64,000 bases of DNA from an uncultured delta proteobacterium (GTDB lineage: Bacteria > Desulfobacterota > Binatia > JACPRU01). A model generated the notes under the pieces. It was not told where the DNA came from. It searched no databases and was given only the letters and a program-made list of their open reading frames with translations. The stretch covers positions 15,269 to 79,268 of the forward strand of contig CAVQEA010000014.1 of the NCBI GenBank assembly GCA_963711395.1, written 5' to 3'. The translations under genes were made by a program, and so were the position numbers. Positions 9,937-19,684 of this stretch are shown here, piece by piece (position 1 is the stretch's first letter; each line of letters starts with the position of its first letter).

Positions 9937-10353
9937 TCAGAGCGCCGCTCGGATCTTGGCGGCGACGGGCTCGAGCCGTTCGGGTGCCACCATCGACCGC
10001 CCGTGCAGCTTCAAGTCCAACCCCTCGGCGCGCGGCAGAACGTGGAAGTGGATGTGCGGCACGCTCTGGCCGGCGGCCGCTCCGTTCAGTTGCACCAGCA
10101 TGATCCCGGGGCATGCGAAGGTCTTCTTCACCGCCTTGGCCACCTTTTGCGTCGTCCGGATCAAGGCAGCCGCGCCGTCGGGTGAAAGATCGAGTATATC
10201 CTGCGCCGGCTCCTTGGTGATGACCAGCGTATGGCCCTCTACCGCCGGCATGATGTCCATGAAGGCAAGCGTTGCCTCGTCCTCATACACCTTCACACAC
10301 GGCAATTCCTTACGCAGGATCTTCGCGAAGACGTTGGTCGGGTCATACGCCAT
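9937..10353 (-). CDS. HIT-family (histidine triad) protein
   Basis: 138 aa from MAYDPTNVFAKILRKELP, with histidine triad VPHIHFHVLPR. The upstream part of ORF 9937..10647 is not protein-like. Confidence 0.9.
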   Translation of the reverse strand: MAYDPTNVFAKILRKELPCVKVYEDEATLAFMDIMPAVEGHTLVITKEPAQDILDLSPDGAAALIRTTQKVAKAVKKTFACPGIMLVQLNGAAAGQSVPHIHFHVLPRAEGLDLKLHGRSMVAPERLEPVAAKIRAAL

Positions 10354-10398
10354 CTGAGTTCCTCGCTTTCTCAAAGGCCTATAGCATTCCGAATCCCG

Positions 10399-11343
10399 AT
10401 GCCGACAGAAGAAGGGAGGCCACGGATCTCGCCCGAAGGGCAACCGCCCTATCCGTGGATAGTTCAGCCGGTCGTCGACCTGCTCTTCGTCTGTGGAGGC
10501 CTGCCGCTGCTGCTGATCGGGGTCAACGTCGCGACGATCGGCTGGAGAGTTCCCTTCGATGGGAACACGATCGTGCAAAGGTCTCTGTTGATTCTCATTC
10601 TCTTCGGGCAGCATCTCTTCGCGGACGCGCATAACGCCGCCACGCATCTACGGATCTGGGGCAGTGGGGAGGATCGAGATCGCTTTGCCTTCTATCGCAT
10701 CTGGCTGACGCTGACCTGTCTGCCGCTCTTCCTTCTCGGGTTAGTCTCTCCGCGTGCCACGAGCGTCTTCGTCTACCTCTATCTCATCACCGTATTCTGG
10801 CACTACGCGGCGCAGGCGTTTGGCATCTCACTGATCTATCTCGCGAAGCGGGGTTACCTTCTCTCGGTTCGCGAAAGGTTCATCTACAAGTATTTCTTCG
10901 TCTCGCTCTCGGCGATGACGATCGTTCGCTTCGTCACCTTTCGAGCCCTGAGCGCGGAGGTCTGGTTCGGTATTCCGATCCCGTTTTGGGGACCGCTGCC
11001 GCACGTGCTGTACCAGGCGGTCGCCAGCGGCTTCGCGCTGTTCGCGACGCTCCTCTGCATGATCGTCGTACGAAAGGCGGCGTTCGACCGAATGCTGCTC
11101 CCGCTGCCGAGCGCGCTGATCATTGCCACGACGGCGTGGCTCGGAATCTCGCTCGGCCCCGCAAACTCGCTGCTCTGGCTCTACGTTCCAGCCTTCTTCC
11201 ACGGCTTCTTGACAACGCTCTGGGTGCGGGCATACCTCTTCGCCGATGGGCTGACGAGGCGCGTCATCACCATTGCTCGAGGAATCGCAGAACATGGAAA
11301 GGCTTCGGTCGGGATGAAGAGAAGCTACTTCAAGCCTCAATAG
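10399..11343 (+). CDS. polytopic membrane protein, unknown family
   Basis: ATG at 10399 (MPTEEGRPRIS...). About 8 hydrophobic segments, non-shadow composition. No family recognised. Confidence 0.55.
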   Translation: MPTEEGRPRISPEGQPPYPWIVQPVVDLLFVCGGLPLLLIGVNVATIGWRVPFDGNTIVQRSLLILILFGQHLFADAHNAATHLRIWGSGEDRDRFAFYRIWLTLTCLPLFLLGLVSPRATSVFVYLYLITVFWHYAAQAFGISLIYLAKRGYLLSVRERFIYKYFFVSLSAMTIVRFVTFRALSAEVWFGIPIPFWGPLPHVLYQAVASGFALFATLLCMIVVRKAAFDRMLLPLPSALIIATTAWLGISLGPANSLLWLYVPAFFHGFLTTLWVRAYLFADGLTRRVITIARGIAEHGKASVGMKRSYFKPQ

Positions 11344-11439
11344 TGCGGTTCGTATCCTTATGCCACGTCCAACGCACGTGGCCCCACCGAAACGCAGCCC
11401 CAGCTTCTTCAGACGACGACTTGTGGTACGAACGCGAGC

Positions 11440-12153
11440 ATGAAGAGAGCGAGTGACACCGATACATCGGCACTGCAAGTGACAGACGCCGGGCAGACCG
11501 GCGGCGAAAGCGAAAGGGCGGACATCATGGCAGCAGATTCCAAATCGGCACCAAAAACAACCGAAGGATCCAACGGGCCGCAGGCCCTTCCCGTTCTCGA
11601 TCTGGGAAGTGGCGATGCCCGGGGCGTGGACAAGATTCGCGACCTCCTGTTCGGGAACCAGATGCAGGACTACGATCGCCGGTTCTCGATGCTCGCGGAC
11701 GGCTTCCAACAGAAGCTGCGCGACATGGAATCCGAGGCCGCTCGAAGCCTGAGTAGCTTGGAGGTCAACCTCAAGAAGCAGCTCGAATCGATCGCGGGTC
11801 AGGTTCGGGAGGAGAAGGATCTGCGAACCGACGCGGACAAAGAGCTCGCGCACAAACTGCTCGAGTCGAGCCAGGCGCTGGAGAAGCGCATGGGACAGCT
11901 GTCCGACCAACTCGCTCGCCTGGAGCGGGACATGAGCGATCGGGTCAGCCACGACGTCCAGGGCTTGCGTGAAGAGATCAAGCGCCGCAATGACGACGCG
12001 CGTGCCACCGTCGATCGGATGTTCGCCGAGCTTCGCGAGGTGAAAACGGACCGGACCCTGCTTGCCGGCTTGTTCGTCGAAGTCGCGCGATGTCTGAACC
12101 AGGAGCTGCCAGCCCAGTTCGCGAACAAGGGCGGAGGCGGCGAGCGGAGCTGA
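11440..12153 (+). CDS. coiled-coil protein, first gene of the GTPase/cyclase operon
   Basis: 237 aa. The central ~150 aa are heptad-like and charged (KLRDMESEAARSLSSLEVNLKKQLESIAGQVREEKDLRTDADKELAHKLLESSQALEKRMGQLSDQLARLERDM). 26-nt gap to the next gene. Confidence 0.6.
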   Translation: MKRASDTDTSALQVTDAGQTGGESERADIMAADSKSAPKTTEGSNGPQALPVLDLGSGDARGVDKIRDLLFGNQMQDYDRRFSMLADGFQQKLRDMESEAARSLSSLEVNLKKQLESIAGQVREEKDLRTDADKELAHKLLESSQALEKRMGQLSDQLARLERDMSDRVSHDVQGLREEIKRRNDDARATVDRMFAELREVKTDRTLLAGLFVEVARCLNQELPAQFANKGGGGERS

Positions 12154-12179
12154 TACCCACGCCGAGCAGAGCGCCGGGC

Positions 12180-14021
12180 ATGTCGGATTCCCCGCCGTCT
12201 CGCAGGACGGATTCGGAAGTCTACGGGCAGACGCCGAATGGTGAGCGGCTCGCCAACCTGCTGATCGGAATCGCCCGGTACGTCGATCCCGCGACCGCTC
12301 CGAGCATCCCCGCCCTGAGCGGTGATCCGAGCCTCGACGCGGTCCGCCACATCCTGCTCGACCGGGAGCTCGCGGTTCTCGCTCGGCTTCGCGGGACTCT
12401 CGACGATCCCGAGCGCCTGGCCGCGGCCATCAGTGACGTGCTGTCGATGGCCGTCCAGCGAGCCGCGGTGCGCGACGGGCGGTTGGGCGAAGTGCTCACC
12501 CCGGCGGTCGAGCGCGCCGCGCAATGCTCGATCAAGAAGGACCCGCGGATTTTCATAAACATCTTTGCGCCGGTGATGGGCGCCAGCATTCGCAAGTCGA
12601 TCGCGGAGACCCTGGAGAACACGCTCCAATCCCTCAACCAAGCCCTCAAGCATAGCTTCTCCTGGCGAGGGCTCATGTGGCGGCTCGAGGCGCGTCGCGC
12701 CGGGACGACGTTCGCAGACGTGGTGCTCCGCCACACGCTCGTCTACCGCGTCGAGCACCTCTTCCTGATCCACAAGGAGACCGGCCTCCTGATCAGCCAC
12801 GTCGCGGCAGACGACGCCGCGAGCGAGGATCCGCAGCTCGTTTCGGGAATGCTCAGCGCCATCCAGGATTTCGTCCGGGACTCTTTCGGTCGCGCCGATG
12901 CCGCCGGCCTCGATTCCCTGCGCTTGGGCGATCAGGTCTTGTGGTGCGAGCAAGGCGCGCTCGCTTTTCTCGCCGCCGTCATTCGCGGCACGCCCCCCGA
13001 AACGCTCCACGGCACTCTCCGCGATGCGCTTGCGACCATCCACGACGAGTGGCGCGGTGCACTCGTGAACTTCGCCGGCGACGATGCCGAGTTCGGCGGC
13101 GTCGCCGAGCAACTGCGGCCGTGTCTGCAAGCGCAAGCGCGCGCCCCCGAAAAGCACTTGTCGCCGCTCCTGTGGGCGCTGCCCCTGCTGCTCCTCGTGC
13201 TCGGCGGCTACTGGCTGTACGAGCGGCACGAAGCTTGGGAGCGATTCGACCACTACGTCGCGCGGCTCGAAGCAGAGCCCGGGATCGTCGTCACCAGCGC
13301 CGGAAGGCGCGACGGCGTCTGGCAGGTGGCCGGCATGCGGGACCCGTTGGCGCCCGATCCGACGACGCTGCTGGGTGCGGGCGACTTGGCGCCGGCCGAC
13401 GTCGAGGGACATTGGCAGCCGTATCTCGCGCTCGACCCCGCCCTCGCGCTGAAAAGGTACCAGACCAGCCTTTCGCCGCCCCCCGGCGTGTCCCTCAAGC
13501 TCGACGGCGGCACTGTGCGCGCCGACGGGTCCGCGCCGCATCACTGGATCGAGCGAGCTCGTGCCCTCGTGCGCACCTTGCCGCCCGGATCCCCCGGGCT
13601 CGACCTGGCGAGCCTCGAGGATCCCGAGATGGCGGAGTACGAGCGCGTACGGGGCGCCGTCCAGTCCCACGTGATCTACTTCGATCACAACGTCCCGAAG
13701 CCGGCGGTCGGCCAGGACGCCGAGATGGACGCTCTGGCGAGCGACCTGCTCGAGCTCGAGCGGGTGGCGCGGGAGATGCGCGTCACCGCGCGCGTGACGA
13801 TCACCGGCCATGCCGATTCCACGGGCAAAGACACGCCGAACCTCGCCCTCAGCACGGGTCGGGCGGAGGTCGTGCGCTCCATGCTGAAGGCGCGTGGCGT
13901 CGATCCCGATCTGTTGGCGGTCAGGGGCGCCGGGCCGCTCGAGCCCTTGAAGCTGGAGACGACCGACGAAGATCGCTCCATCAACCGACGCGTATCGTTC
14001 ACCGTCGGCATCGGAGAGTGA
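12180..14021 (+). CDS. bitopic envelope protein: cytoplasmic helical + Roadblock/LC7-like region, one TM, periplasmic region, C-terminal OmpA-like peptidoglycan-binding domain
   Basis: 613 aa from MSDSPPS. Residues ~186-300 (TLVYRVEHLFLIHKETGLLISHVAADDAASEDPQLVSGMLSAIQDFVRDSFG...VLWCEQGALAFLAAVIRG) look Roadblock/MglB-like by eye. TM is LSPLLWALPLLLLVLGGYWLY (~329-347). OmpA-like C-terminus is VIYFDHN...ITGHADSTG...NLALSTGRAEVV...NRRVSF. Confidence 0.8.
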   Translation: MSDSPPSRRTDSEVYGQTPNGERLANLLIGIARYVDPATAPSIPALSGDPSLDAVRHILLDRELAVLARLRGTLDDPERLAAAISDVLSMAVQRAAVRDGRLGEVLTPAVERAAQCSIKKDPRIFINIFAPVMGASIRKSIAETLENTLQSLNQALKHSFSWRGLMWRLEARRAGTTFADVVLRHTLVYRVEHLFLIHKETGLLISHVAADDAASEDPQLVSGMLSAIQDFVRDSFGRADAAGLDSLRLGDQVLWCEQGALAFLAAVIRGTPPETLHGTLRDALATIHDEWRGALVNFAGDDAEFGGVAEQLRPCLQAQARAPEKHLSPLLWALPLLLLVLGGYWLYERHEAWERFDHYVARLEAEPGIVVTSAGRRDGVWQVAGMRDPLAPDPTTLLGAGDLAPADVEGHWQPYLALDPALALKRYQTSLSPPPGVSLKLDGGTVRADGSAPHHWIERARALVRTLPPGSPGLDLASLEDPEMAEYERVRGAVQSHVIYFDHNVPKPAVGQDAEMDALASDLLELERVAREMRVTARVTITGHADSTGKDTPNLALSTGRAEVVRSMLKARGVDPDLLAVRGAGPLEPLKLETTDEDRSINRRVSFTVGIGE

Positions 14022-14533
14022 TGCAGCAAAAGAAGATCTGCATGCTGGGCGCGTTCGCCGTGGGTAAGACCAGCCTCGTCCGCCGTTACGTCGACAGTAT
14101 CTTCTCGGACACCTACCTCTCCACGGTCGGGGTCAAGATCGACAAGCACGTCGTCACGGTCGGCGACGAGACACTGAACCTGATTCTCTGGGACATCGCC
14201 GGCGAGGATGATGTCTCTTCGGTTCGGATGAGCTACCTCCGCGGCGCGAGCGGCTATTTCCTGGTGGTGGACGGGACACGCGCGGTGACGCTCGACGTCG
14301 CGCGCTCCATCCAGGAGCGCGCCAAAGGCGAGATCGGCAACGTGCCGTTCATCGCCCTCGTCAACAAGCTCGACGTGCGCAACGAGTGGACCGTCGCACA
14401 GGAAAGCCTGGCCGAGCTCGAAAACGCCGGGTGGTCGGTGGCGCTGACCAGCGCCCGGACCGGCGAAGGCGTCGAAGAGGCGTTCCACACCCTCGCCGAG
14501 CGCATGCTCCTCTCAAACACGACGACGCGATGA
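14021..14533 (+). CDS. small Ras/Rab-like GTPase (prokaryotic Ras-superfamily, Rup-type)
   Basis: 170 aa. G1 GAFAVGKTS. Switch I YLSTVGV (Rab-like). G3 WDIAGED. G4 NKLD. G5 TSARTGEGV. The start overlaps the upstream stop (TGATG at 14019-14023). Confidence 0.9.
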   Translation: MQQKKICMLGAFAVGKTSLVRRYVDSIFSDTYLSTVGVKIDKHVVTVGDETLNLILWDIAGEDDVSSVRMSYLRGASGYFLVVDGTRAVTLDVARSIQERAKGEIGNVPFIALVNKLDVRNEWTVAQESLAELENAGWSVALTSARTGEGVEEAFHTLAERMLLSNTTTR

Positions 14534-15606
14534 ACCCGCCCGGCGCGTCGTGGCTCATGAAAGCCTGGCCCGCCGCAGTGACCGACTATCTGAGTCGGCT
14601 GCTGCAAGAGCAATTTCACCCGGCCTTTCTGCAAGTGGATCCGGACGGCAACCTGGCGGCGGCGGGCGGCGCGCTGGAGCTGTACGGACTCTCGGGGTTC
14701 CAGACGGGCGTGCCGATCGTCGACTACCTGCCGCTCCTGATGGGCCTCTTGCCGTTGCAAGCGTCCAGTGATCCGTTCGTAATCCCCTGGGTCAACATCG
14801 ACGGCGGCGGTTATATGGATGTCCACCTCCTGCCCGGCGACGGCTGCGACTTCGTCATCTGCGTCGAGGCCCTCGTCGAACGGGAGGAGCGCGTGGCGTG
14901 GCAGCAGAAAGGAAACGAGCTCGCCCTGACCAAGCAGAAGCAGGCGCAGCTGCTCGAATCTCACGTGGGAAAGTACGTTGCCGGAGAGCTGCTGCGCGGT
15001 GGTCTGGTGCCAGACGAGGAAGGCGAGCGGCGCGAGGCCTCGCTCCTCTTCTGTGACATTCGCAGTTTTACCACCTTCGCCGAGCGGAACCCGCCGCAGG
15101 TCGTCTTTCAGACGCTGAATCAGCTTCTCCAGGCAATGGTTCAGCCCATCCTCGACCACGGTGGTTGGCTCGACAAGATGGCCGGGGACGCCGTCTTCGG
15201 CGCGTTCGGCCTCATTCCCTATCAGACGCCCGGCGGAGACGAGCGCAAGACCCCGGCGCCGGTTCGCGCGCTGCTCGCTGCGCAAGCCATCATGAGCAAG
15301 CTGCGCGATTGGAACGACGAGAGGCGTCGCGGCGGAGCCGAACCACTGGGCGCCGGTATCGGCATCACCACGGGAACAGTCGCAGTCGGAGTACTCGGTA
15401 CGCGTGAGCGGCGGCAGTTCACGATCATCGGCCACCACGTCAACCTCGCGGCGCGGCTGCAAGGACAGGCCTTGGCCGGCGAAATCTTCGTCGATGCGTC
15501 CACACTTGCGACGCTCGGCGAGCTCGCGCAGGGTTTTACGCCGCGACCGCTCAGTCTAAAGGGCCTGCAGGACGTCGAAGCCTACGTACTCGCCACGGAT
15601 TGGTAG
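14530..15606 (+). CDS. class III adenylate/guanylate cyclase with PAS-like N-terminal domain of unknown function
   Basis: 358 aa. The catalytic domain has ASLLFCDIRSFTTFAE (metal Asp), LDKMAGDAVFGAFG (Lys + second Asp), GIGITTGTVAVGVLG and FTIIGHHVNLAARLQ (Asn/Arg). ATGA overlap with the GTPase stop at 14530-14533. Confidence 0.9.
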   Translation: MNPPGASWLMKAWPAAVTDYLSRLLQEQFHPAFLQVDPDGNLAAAGGALELYGLSGFQTGVPIVDYLPLLMGLLPLQASSDPFVIPWVNIDGGGYMDVHLLPGDGCDFVICVEALVEREERVAWQQKGNELALTKQKQAQLLESHVGKYVAGELLRGGLVPDEEGERREASLLFCDIRSFTTFAERNPPQVVFQTLNQLLQAMVQPILDHGGWLDKMAGDAVFGAFGLIPYQTPGGDERKTPAPVRALLAAQAIMSKLRDWNDERRRGGAEPLGAGIGITTGTVAVGVLGTRERRQFTIIGHHVNLAARLQGQALAGEIFVDASTLATLGELAQGFTPRPLSLKGLQDVEAYVLATDW

Positions 15607-15723
15607 CGCAGGGCGCAGCCACCCAGGTTCGACCCCGCATTGAGAAATCGCAGACCCAGGACTTATGACGGGCGTGACGCCGCAAGCCGTCCGCCTGCTT
15701 TTCGAGAACGAGGGAGAGGCACA

Positions 15724-17486
15724 ATGAGACGAGTCATCGACGGAAGCCTTGCGCTCATCGCACTACTGGCAGTCACACCGGTCGCGGCGCAGCAGGTCAC
15801 GGGCGAGTTGGGTTCGCCCAGCGCCACGACCACGATCGACGGAAGACAAATTCCGCCTCCGCCGATGAAGTTTGGCGGCGTGATCAAGGAGAGCGCCACG
15901 GAGTCGAAGCAGTGGTGGCCGCCGCGCGTGGTGCCGCCGAAAGGCGCGCCCAACGTGCTACTCATCATGACCGATGACCAGGGCTATGGCGTGTCGGGCA
16001 CCTTTGGCGGGGTCATCTCGACGCCGGCGCTGGACCGCATGCCGGCTACGCGGCCTATACCGACCATGAGATCGGCCGGGTGATTCAGGCTGTCGAGGAC
16101 ATGGGCAAGCTCGACAACACGCTGGTCATCTACATCTGCGGCGACAATGGCACCAGCCCGGAAGGCACCCTGTATGGCGCCTTCAATCAGCTCACCGCCT
16201 ACAACGGCATTCTCGATGCCCCTGAAGCCCTGCAGTTGTTGCACTATGAAGACTGGGGCTCGGACAAGACCTACCCGCATATGGCGGTGGGATGGGCGTG
16301 GGCCTTTGATACGCCCTTCAAATGGACCAAGCAGGTGGCGTCGCATTTCGGCGGGACCCGGCAGGGCTTGGCCATTTCGTGGCCCGGCCACATCAAGGAC
16401 CTCGGCGCCGTTCGCTCCCAGTTCCATCATGTCATTGATGTCGTGCCGACGATCCTTGAAGCCACTGGCATCAAAGCGCCGGACATGGTCAACGGCATCC
16501 AGCAACGACCCATCGAAGGCGTGAGCATGGCCTACACGTTCGACGCGGCGAATGCGAAGGCACCGTCGAAGCGCGACACGCAGTATTTCGAGATGGCCGC
16601 CAATCGCGGGATTTATCACGACGGCTGGATGGCCAATACGACACCGTTCGCCCCGCCCTGGGACTTGGCAACGGGCAAGTTGCCCGATGTCGTCACCGGC
16701 TACAAATGGGAGCTCTACAACATCACCGAAGACTACTCGCAAAACGACGACCTCGCCGCCAAGAATCCTGAGAAGTTGAAGGAGATGCAGGCATTGTTCG
16801 CGACAGAGGCGGCGAAATACAACGTCTTCCCGTTGGATAACACCGCCTTCTCGCGCTTACTGACGCCGCGACCGAGCGCCACCGCGGGACACACAATGTT
16901 CACCTACACGGGTGAGAATGCCGGCATTCCCCTCGGCAATGCTCCGAGCATTCTGGACAGGGACTATACCATCACAGCCGACGTGACGATCCCCGAAGGC
17001 GGCGCGGAGGGCATGATCGTGACGCTCGGGGGCCGCTTCGGCGGCTACGCCCTCTTCCTGCAAAAAGGCAAGCCGGTCTTCGTCTACAACCTCCTCGATC
17101 TGGAGCGATTCCGCTGGGAGGGTGGCGTGGGAGGCATCATCGGCGAGGACTTCCTTGGCCGTGCGCTCCAGCCGGGAAAACACACGCTCGTGTTCGACTT
17201 CAAATACGACGGCCCCGGCCCCGGCAAGGGCGGCACGGGCGTGTTCACGGTGGATGGCAAGGAGTTGGCCCGCAAGACGCTCAAGCACACGATTCCGCTC
17301 ATGATGACCATTGACGAGACCTTCGACGTTGGGGTTGATACCCGCACGGGGGTCGACGACAGCTACAAGCTGCCGTTCCGCTTCACCGGGACGATCAACA
17401 AGCTGACCTTCAAGCTCGGGCCGGAGCAGTTGACGGCGACGGATCAGAAGGCCGCGGCTGAAGCAGTTGGCAAAGCCAACGAGTAG
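15724..17486 (+). pseudogene. arylsulfatase with internal deletion of the catalytic core
   Basis: N-terminus has a signal peptide and NVLLIMTDDQGYGVSGTFGGVISTPALDR. Reading then jumps, with a frame change at ~16040-16050, directly to GYAAYTDHEIGRVIQAVEDMGKLDNTLVIYICGDNGTS. The segment that normally carries the C/S-x-P-x-R formylglycine motif and most of the sulfatase fold is absent. Confidence 0.8.
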
Positions 17487-18994: not shown

Positions 18995-19684
18995 ATGCCG
19001 GTCGTTGTTATCAGTAGGTACCCAGTGCAGTCACTCCAATTGACCTTCGATCGAGCGCCGCGCTTCGTGCTGCTGCTGCTGTCGATCATCACGGAGCTCA
19101 TGATCGCCCCGCTCTTTGCTGGGAGCGAATTGGGCCTGCATGCCGCTCAAGGCCTGGCGATCCTCGTCATGGTGTCGGCTCTGTGGGCCGCCGGCGGGCG
19201 AGCGGCATCGGTGGTGCTCTTCGTTCCAACGATTGTTGTCCATCTGCTCGCGGCATACTGGGGTACCGCTTCAATCCATGTGGCGGCGCTGATACTCCGC
19301 ATCGTCTTCTTCAGCTACACGACGGGGCTCATCGTGTGGCGCACCATGCGCCGGGCGGACGTGACGATCGACACGATCGCAGGGGCGGCGTGCGCGTACA
19401 CCCTCCTCGCCCTGGTGTGGGGCAACGTCTATGTACTCCTCGAGCTCGTCCGCCCGGGATCCTTCAACATCCCCGCTGTCTGGCTGATGGGTGCCTCCCA
19501 CGATCCGGGTGCGGCACTCGTCTACTTCAGCTTCATCACCCTGACGACCGTGGGCTATGGAGACATCACGCCTGTGTGGCCAGGTGCCGGGGGTCTTGCA
19601 GCGGCCGAGGCGATCGTCGGCCAACTCTATCTCGCGATAACGATCGCCCGACTGGTCGGTGTGCACGCGTCGCAGCGGACCTGA
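18995..19684 (+). CDS. potassium-channel-like ion channel (pore TTVGYGD) with extra N-terminal TMs
   Basis: Selectivity-filter-like FSFITLTTVGYGDITP is flanked by TM helices. Paralog of 43855..44478. Confidence 0.75.
   Translation: MPVVVISRYPVQSLQLTFDRAPRFVLLLLSIITELMIAPLFAGSELGLHAAQGLAILVMVSALWAAGGRAASVVLFVPTIVVHLLAAYWGTASIHVAALILRIVFFSYTTGLIVWRTMRRADVTIDTIAGAACAYTLLALVWGNVYVLLELVRPGSFNIPAVWLMGASHDPGAALVYFSFITLTTVGYGDITPVWPGAGGLAAAEAIVGQLYLAITIARLVGVHASQRT

Follow-up and report, generated by a model that had tools for sequence, protein, structure and literature searches.

The DNA analysed here (the window) is a stretch of 64,000 nucleotides from an uncultured delta proteobacterium (GTDB Desulfobacterota; Binatia; JACPRU01), taken from contig CAVQEA010000014.1 of assembly GCA_963711395.1 (positions 15,269 to 79,268, forward strand). 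The subject of this report is a cluster of four genes within it, all on the plus strand, which encode in order the cytoplasmic protein DUFY, the membrane protein DUFX:OmpA, the Rab-like small GTPase Rup, and an output enzyme in which a Rup-associated N-terminal domain (N-domain) is fused to a predicted class III adenylyl cyclase (Table 1). The first two genes are separated by a gap of 26 nt (12154-12179), the second and third share a TGATG junction (TGA 14019-14021, ATG 14021-14023), and the third and fourth an ATGA junction (ATG 14530-14532, TGA 14531-14533). The coordinates, co-directionality, gap and overlaps had been given in a preliminary description made from the DNA letters, and all are borne out by the list of open reading frames (ORFs) and by the sequence, as are, by Pfam, its domain calls for OmpA, Ras and Guanylate_cyc. 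The four ORFs are real genes and not chance ORFs: homologues of the 613-residue DUFX:OmpA number more than 1500, and all related loci of sufficient length repeat the four-gene order. A scan of 10600-16200 for promoters and terminators gave nothing above shuffled expectation.

Table 1. Genes and domains of the Rup cluster in the window, with the basis of each assignment
Feature	Length or residues	Position	Strand	Basis
DUFY, cytoplasmic protein, predicted mostly helical/coiled-coil	237 residues	11440..12153	+	ORF
DUFX:OmpA, bitopic inner-membrane protein	613 residues	12180..14021	+	ORF, homologues, AlphaFold2 (AF2) model
DUFX cytoplasmic helical region	~20-175	12237..12704	+	DSSP of AF2 model, low confidence (pLDDT 42-68)
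DUFX longin/Roadblock-like alpha/beta domain	~178-296	12711..13067	+	AF2 model, Foldseek
Single transmembrane helix, LSPLLWALPLLLLVLGGYWLY	~327-347	13158..13220	+	best hydropathy window of DUFX, sole hydrophobic stretch
Periplasmic alpha/beta domain, BON-like	~367-480	13278..13619	+	AF2 model (pLDDT 84-94), Foldseek, alignment A1
OmpA-like domain, predicted peptidoglycan-binding	~498-611	13671..14012	+	Pfam OmpA at residues 525-603, E 4e-12
Rup, Rab-like small GTPase	170 residues	14021..14533	+	Pfam Ras E 7e-28 (also Roc, Arf)
Output enzyme, N-domain fused to predicted class III adenylyl cyclase	358 residues	14530..15606	+	ORF, Pfam, alignments
Rup-associated N-domain (~125 residues)	~10-135	14557..14934	+	alignments A3, A5, A6
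Class III cyclase catalytic domain	168-355	15031..15594	+	Pfam Guanylate_cyc E 1.5e-17

Assignment to the Group 1 Rup systems

The comparative genomics of Wuichet & Søgaard-Andersen (2014, Genome Biol Evol 7:57; PMC4316618) split the prokaryotic Ras-superfamily GTPases into the MglA and Rup families. The gene neighbourhood of their Group 1 Rup GTPases includes a coiled-coil cytoplasmic protein (DUFY), a protein composed of an unknown cytoplasmic domain, one inner-membrane transmembrane (TM) helix and a C-terminal OmpA domain (DUFX), and a signalling output, typically GGDEF/EAL or histidine kinase, with an N-terminal invariant glutamine. Group 1 Rup lacks the catalytic G3 glutamine, for which supply in trans was speculated, and a conservon-like membrane signalling pathway was proposed (PMC4316618). 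DUFY>DUFX:OmpA>Rup clusters are listed in Table S2 of the same paper for Mesorhizobium loti, Nostoc, Sorangium, Alteromonas and others.

The window cassette matches this description point by point, as judged from the described features and from homology to the listed taxa. It has the same four components in the same order: a single-domain GTPase with eukaryote-like G1-G5 motifs and no G3 glutamine, adjacent genes for DUFY and for a DUFX-TM-OmpA protein, and a fourth gene for a signalling output whose N-domain carries the conserved glutamines Q125/Q126. DUFX, Rup and DUFY of the window are homologous to the proteins of Nostocales and Mesorhizobium clusters, taxa that figure in Table S2 of PMC4316618. 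With the Nostocales proteins, DUFX:OmpA shares 38% identity over 561 residues (E 3e-131), Rup 57% (E 9e-70), and DUFY, against the first gene of the Nostocales cluster, 31% (E 8e-26); the first gene of the Mesorhizobium clusters is homologous to DUFY too.

The preliminary description had presented the four-gene combination as undescribed, and had named a match to an already described signalling module as what would speak against this. Such a match was found, and the claim of discovery is weaker than it first appeared because the cassette is already in the literature; it is an additional member of the known Group 1 Rup kind, with some new structural annotation. Two differences set it apart from the 2014 account: here a class III adenylyl cyclase serves as output, compared with the GGDEF/EAL proteins and histidine kinases named there, and the DUFX domain, unknown there, here models as a longin/Roadblock domain accompanied by a BON-like periplasmic domain (PMC4316618). 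The literature searched (by locus tags, Rup GTPase and component combinations) yielded no experimental follow-up of Rup since 2014. Four features were found neither in the 2014 paper nor in the later literature searched: the modelled longin/Roadblock fold of DUFX, its modelled Rv0899-like periplasmic part, the invariant Phe at the Ras-Gly12 position in the Rup alignment, and the predicted complete Lys/Thr cyclase site. We cannot be sure that the longin/Roadblock assignment is new; Pfam and NCBIfam hold no model for the domain.

The Rup GTPase

The Ras/Rab-like character first assigned to the third gene product is confirmed by its match to Pfam Ras and by its best solved relatives in the PDB, which are Rabs (Rab23, Rab1, Rab21 and Rab7, with E down to 1e-22). 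The 60 solved relatives listed for Rup are almost all Rabs, plus a Thorarchaeota Rab, with no MglA among them. All nucleotide-binding motifs are recognizable: G1 as G10-A-F12-A-V-G-K-T17 (GAFAVGKT), switch I as T35, G3 as D58-I-A-G-E62, G4 as N115-K-L-D, and G5 as S144-A-R. In G3 the catalytic Gln is replaced by E62, and this DxAGE form is present in 77 of 78 related loci. A Phe occupies the position of Ras Gly12 in all 78, within the pattern G-[AG]-F-[GAS]-V-G-K-T. In Ras biochemistry, changes at Gly12 and Gln61 argue against intrinsic or arginine-finger-type hydrolysis; since Rup lacks both residues, its GTP hydrolysis probably relies on a residue supplied in trans.

The DUFX:OmpA membrane protein

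The start of DUFX:OmpA at 12180 is backed by homologues with the same MSDS N-terminus. Its AF2 model has a mean predicted local distance difference test score (pLDDT) of 74 over the full length, and the bitopic topology of the preliminary description agrees with hydropathy and with the model, in which the one TM segment falls within a long helix (residues 329-365). The model also places the alpha/beta unit of the cytoplasmic part at residues 178-290 and a confidently predicted periplasmic domain at 369-466. No Pfam or NCBIfam family matches the cytoplasmic part or the periplasmic repeat even at E<=10, and no recognizable enzymatic domain appears in the Pfam and NCBIfam scans of the protein.

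Pal and OmpA domains dominate the Foldseek matches of the whole model, which are uninformative for the cytoplasmic part; residues 160-330 were therefore modelled alone. The resulting AF2 model (pLDDT 77, predicted TM-score 0.71) has the order alpha-beta-beta-alpha-beta-beta-beta-alpha and contains the best conserved part of DUFX (DPQLVSxMLxAIQDFVxDSF). Its top 50 Foldseek matches in the PDB, at E of 2e-4 to 5e-3 and template modelling (TM) scores of about 0.4-0.65, are, as far as we recognize them, proteins of the longin/Roadblock fold or complexes with such proteins. Among them are AP sigma, adaptin mu N-terminal domains, zeta-COP, Mon1-Ccz1 and TRAPP (Bet5, Trs23, sedlin), as well as Ego3, LAMTOR/Ragulator, Rag C-terminal domains, MglC and MglB (3t12), the last with the highest sequence identity of the matches (25%). 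A longin/Roadblock-type fold for residues 178-296 is thus supported at the fold level by a model of medium confidence and by structural comparison, and the Roadblock-like cytoplasmic part that had been proposed from the letters stands in this sense. It does not stand as a sequence-family assignment, Pfam giving no Robl_LC7 match in residues 178-296 even at E<=10. A Robl_LC7 match at residues 58-93 (E 0.22) was treated as chance, lying in the helical region and outside the alpha/beta domain.

Across the membrane, the top Foldseek match of the whole model is the BON- and OmpA-like protein Rv0899 (2l26; 263 aligned columns). The periplasmic BON-like domain (about 110-130 residues) is present in one copy here and in 1 to 5 tandem copies across homologues in Mesorhizobium and others (alignment A1), a variation which suggests that the distance from the inner membrane to the peptidoglycan anchor is tuned by lineage. 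The length of DUFX homologues follows the periplasmic copy number, from 613 to about 1020 residues (e.g. L003 8001-10658, L075 1359-4418). The C-terminal domain has NCBIfam matches of Pal, YiaD and MotB type and Foldseek matches to the Pal, OmpA and OprF C-terminal domains with TM scores up to 0.88. It contains the motif GHADSTG...NLALSTGRAEVV and LSTGRA, with D546 nearly invariant and R561 invariant (alignment A2). The conserved Asp and Arg of OmpA-like domains contact diaminopimelate, and peptidoglycan binding is predicted for DUFX from the presence of these two residues and of the OmpA_C fold in the model.

DUFY

DUFY has no Pfam or NCBIfam family above cut-off or even at E<=10, save for weak helical-repeat Pfam matches, which together with the sequence suggest its coiled-coil character. 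Its conserved core runs from GVDKIRDLLFGNQMQDYDRRF (residues 62-82) through VKTDRTLLAGLFVEVARCLNQ (residues 201-221), and an alignment of 12 sequences (A7) has 51 invariant columns. The start is uncertain: homologues align from about residue 56 only, a close relative begins at the equivalent of ATG 11527, and this start (208 residues) fits the homologues as well as that at 11440.

A helix motif of about 30 residues, DR-x-LLA-x-L-x-E-[VI]-AR, is common to the DUFY C-terminus (residues 198-221, 12031-12102, VKTDRTLLAGLFVEVARCLNQ) and the DUFX N-terminus (residues 14-43, 12219-12308, GERLANLLIGIARYVD), as detected by hhalign (probability 87%, E 3.7e-6); a BLASTP comparison of DUFY with the N-terminus of DUFX gave no significant match. 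The motif may be a common docking helix.

The output enzyme

The class III cyclase of the preliminary description is confirmed by the Guanylate_cyc match and by the best PDB relatives of the catalytic domain, namely Cya2 (2w01), CyaB (3r5g) and CyaC (1wc1). By alignment to Cya2, together with similarity to CyaB and CyaC, the metal-binding residues are D176 and D220, the substrate-specifying residues K216 and T298, and the transition-state residues N305 and R309. The guanylyl cyclase Cya2 has Glu at the position of K216 and Gly at that of T298; the Lys/Thr pair we take to be of the class IIIb adenylyl cyclase type in the classification of Linder & Schultz. The predicted active site is complete for a Lys/Thr adenylyl cyclase.

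The N-domain has the conserved positions G72-L-L-P75, D97-x-H99 and Q125-Q126-K, and is followed by a helical linker (residues 136-167). Outputs of the cyclase and PP2C types alike keep G72, P75 and D97 without exception, and Q125/Q126 at a conservation of 90% or more. In Pfam and NCBIfam the N-terminal 150 residues have no match even at E<=10, a profile of the N-domain gave zero matches at E<=10 against all PDB sequences, and hhalign found no relationship of the N-domain to DUFX (probability 0.3%). From the sequence pattern we suspect that the domain is PAS-like. HNOBA Pfam matches on some outputs were rejected as a clue to its fold, as they cover the C-terminal coiled coil of that model only and not its PAS-like part.

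In a profile search the same N-domain turned up on proteins of PP2C, cyclase and HisKA type, and in Nostocales as a gene of its own with 133 residues. The cyclase outputs themselves differ by lineage, the Mesorhizobium type scoring 170 bits on Pfam and having a linker like that of soluble guanylyl cyclase, and the type from alphaproteobacterial metagenome-assembled genomes (MAGs) having a linker of ~90 residues; these differing subtypes point to repeated domain swapping behind a constant N-domain. In the closest relatives (87% identity; L001 and L002 10348-11790) the cyclase has 480 residues and two tandem copies of the N-domain instead of one.

Conservation of the gene cluster

The cluster was surveyed with one genome per species (579 relatives, 80 loci kept), a sample biased to the closest relatives with many Variovorax and Mesorhizobium, and 84 loci in total were compared by BLASTP. 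The taxa covered are Variovorax and other Burkholderiales, Acidobacteriaceae, Vicinamibacterales, Mesorhizobium, Reyranella, Stellaceae, Steroidobacteraceae and a Myxococcaceae MAG. Against all ORFs of each locus, the order DUFY-DUFX-Rup-output (with N-domain) was found in 81 of the 84, the other three being cut by contig ends, and the synteny is kept across Proteobacteria, Acidobacteriota, Myxococcota and Cyanobacteria. The concern raised at the outset, that the four genes might be syntenic in no other genome, is thereby removed, and the functional linkage read from their overlapping codons is upheld by conservation across phyla.

The nearest species-representative genomes have only about 57% identity at the locus. 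The same four genes are present in the 87%-identical relative and, with a longer OmpA protein, in Mesorhizobium; in a third relative a SpoIIE/PP2C phosphatase gene comes after the same three leading genes, and the cluster lies directly downstream of STAS and anti-sigma-kinase-like genes. All outputs open with a region homologous to residues 1 to ~135 of the window cyclase, and the catalytic part alone varies: 47 outputs scanned against Pfam comprise 27 SpoIIE/PP2C and 20 Guanylate_cyc proteins, all with the N-domain. In Nostocales the order is DUFY, DUFX:OmpA, Rup, N-domain and HATPase_c kinase.

Two loci deserve separate mention. In the Nostocales locus L085 (7001-8551, 8809-9748) the N-domain is the separate 133-residue gene, the HATPase_c kinase gene begins 37 nt later, and four to five tandem ORFs of 67 residues lie immediately downstream on the opposite strand. 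In L004 (6445-7239) the genes immediately before the PP2C-type module encode STAS and HATPase_c_2 (anti-sigma-kinase-like) proteins and a GAF-rich hybrid kinase; this setting suggests that the output feeds a partner-switching cascade.

In a library of 1.8 billion proteins, the cytoplasmic domain of DUFX matches 4416 clusters at 50% identity with E<=1e-3 (1526 with E<=1e-30), so that by this domain alone, with more than 4000 clusters, the Rup branch is widespread. In eukaryotic signalling Rab/Ras-like GTPases have a central place, but in bacteria, to our knowledge, the MglA branch alone has been studied experimentally. The locus and its relatives offer a concrete wiring diagram for the other branch, consisting of a membrane protein with a predicted wall anchor and a longin/Roadblock-type platform, a GTPase without the usual hydrolysis residues, and an output (cyclase, phosphatase or kinase) with a candidate trans glutamine.

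Proposed mechanism and alternatives

We consider the cluster a Group 1 Rup small-GTPase module with an adenylyl cyclase output, working by a relay from the envelope through the GTPase to cyclic AMP (cAMP), and give this reading a probability of roughly 0.6. The relay is plausible, and all of its steps are ones that we infer. DUFX, spanning the inner membrane and fixed to the peptidoglycan through its OmpA/BON part, would report the state of the envelope inward. Its longin/Roadblock domain, probably dimeric, would together with DUFY set the nucleotide state of Rup, in the role of either guanine nucleotide exchange factor (GEF) or GTPase-activating protein (GAP), both being possible alike. Longin/Roadblock platforms act in this way on MglA, Rab7, Rag and Arf-family GTPases. 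Rup-GTP would then bind the N-domain of the cyclase and alter the activity of the cyclase dimer, and hence cAMP. Gln125/Gln126 of the output would be the candidate for the trans residue in Rup hydrolysis, as was proposed for the output glutamine in 2014 (PMC4316618); the effector would then be timing itself. Sister lineages would use the same front end of three genes to drive a PP2C phosphatase (partner-switching) or a histidine kinase. If the relay is true, it would be the first small-GTPase-to-second-messenger pathway in bacteria, and would bear on the prokaryotic ancestry of the longin/Roadblock-GTPase partnership.

The following points weigh against the relay from envelope to cAMP. The direction of information flow is assumed. 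The Roadblock assignment is made at the level of the fold only (Foldseek E ~1e-4 to 1e-3, TM score ~0.5, pLDDT 77, no Pfam Robl_LC7). A cyclase-type output is not named in the 2014 text, where GGDEF/EAL and kinases are mentioned (PMC4316618).

A fuller form of the relay, which we put forward only tentatively and hold to be doubtful, is a bacterial cascade of transmembrane receptor, G protein and adenylyl cyclase, in which a peptidoglycan-anchored receptor would carry its own longin/Roadblock GEF or GAP platform for a Rab-like GTPase and the effector would supply the missing Gln as a built-in GAP timer. If true, the cassette would be the prokaryotic equivalent of the longin-GEF/Rab logic of eukaryotes, and possibly related to it in evolution, with outputs that plug in, namely cAMP, PP2C partner switching, histidine kinase and cyclic di-GMP.

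The first alternative, which we consider unlikely, takes DUFX as a peptidoglycan-anchored landmark with no envelope sensing, and Rup as an MglA-like switch that sets where and when the output is recruited, giving localized cAMP or phosphatase. The OmpA-like anchor and the variable periplasmic spacer repeats would suit a positional tether, and MglA with its Roadblock partner is an established localization switch to which the Foldseek matches provide a link of fold; however, the output always comes with a dedicated N-domain and a linker of the signalling-helix type, which are typical of allosteric control over recruitment. Such a scaffold and the relay are not mutually exclusive.

More improbable still is a flow of information from inside to outside, in which the N-domain of the output would be the GAP or sensor that sets Rup, and DUFX/DUFY would be the Rup effector, altering the envelope or the attachment to peptidoglycan. 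The conserved Gln of the N-domain and the missing Gln of Rup make a GAP role of the output plausible, and longin/Roadblock proteins can act as effectors as well as regulators, but this model leaves unexplained the swapping of cyclase, PP2C and kinase behind a constant front end, a pattern that is the signature of an interchangeable output, and DUFX has no recognizable enzymatic domain.

A Pycsar-like anti-phage system with the cyclase making a cyclic nucleotide alarm is scarcely credible, for although the PADLOC models for PycC match the cyclase domain (best E 2.5e-22) and those for ZorB/MotB the OmpA part, these are generic domain matches, DUFY and Rup match nothing in PADLOC, no Pycsar effector gene (TM or TIR) adjoins the cyclase (its neighbours being DUFY, DUFX and Rup), the cyclase has the purine-type Lys/Thr pair, and the same chromosomal cassette occurs with PP2C or kinase outputs in fixed order across phyla.

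Comparison with other systems

The MglA/MglB polarity switch of Myxococcus xanthus and Thermus pairs a small Ras-superfamily GTPase with a Roadblock-fold regulator, as the window cassette may do at the level of the fold. By contrast, Rup is Rab-like (with Rabs as its best PDB relatives, a canonical DxxG and no MglA-type features), the Roadblock-like domain lies inside a membrane protein and has no Pfam Robl_LC7 match, whereas MglB is a free dimer, and a dedicated enzymatic output is encoded in the operon. The actinobacterial conservon (CvnA-D/Mfp), with which an analogy was drawn in the 2014 paper (PMC4316618), is also a four-gene operon, with a sensor in the membrane, a protein of Roadblock type and a small GTPase. 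It differs in its components, namely the histidine-kinase-like CvnA, the separate Roadblock protein CvnB, the DUF742 protein CvnC and a GTPase of the MglA family, and none of the conservon Pfam families was found in the four window proteins.

The likeness to yeast Ras and adenylyl cyclase pointed out in the preliminary description holds as a logic, in that yeast Ras2-Cyr1 and the receptor-G protein-adenylyl cyclase cascades of eukaryotes place a class III cyclase under the control of a GTP-bound G protein, small or heterotrimeric. It fails as pathway homology: in Pfam the window cyclase has Guanylate_cyc alone, with no Ras-association or leucine-rich repeat domain, and the module has no G protein-coupled receptor. 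The coupling domain is instead bacterial and family-specific, and occurs also on PP2C phosphatases and kinases. Rv0899 (ArfA/OmpATb) and other TM-BON-OmpA proteins align structurally with the periplasmic half of DUFX and have one TM helix each, as DUFX does, but Rv0899 lacks the large cytoplasmic longin/Roadblock domain and is not GTPase-linked.

Flanking DNA

Upstream of the cluster, longest-ORF calls overlap between a HIT-domain gene (9937-10647, minus strand) and an unannotated membrane protein (10231-11343, plus strand) that is not conserved beside the module in other loci. The HIT domain spans residues 112-208 only, so the real start of the HIT gene is probably near 10359 and that of the membrane protein near 10399. 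Just downstream of the cluster, a sulfatase gene (15724-17486) is broken: its N-terminal part ends ...ISTPALDRM, with the frame lost at about 16080, and a second ORF resumes at ...VIQAVEDMGKLDNTLVIY, so that a stretch of ~200 residues, with the C/S-x-P-x-R active-site segment in it, appears to be lacking, the gene being either a pseudogene or an assembly error. The G+C content is 0.60-0.64 over roughly 10-34 kb (10001-34000) and 0.66-0.71 on both sides, the Rup operon being intermediate (0.65-0.69). Further downstream, the translation of an ORF of 229 residues (18995-19684) contains the potassium-channel selectivity-filter motif TTVGYGD and several hydrophobic helices.

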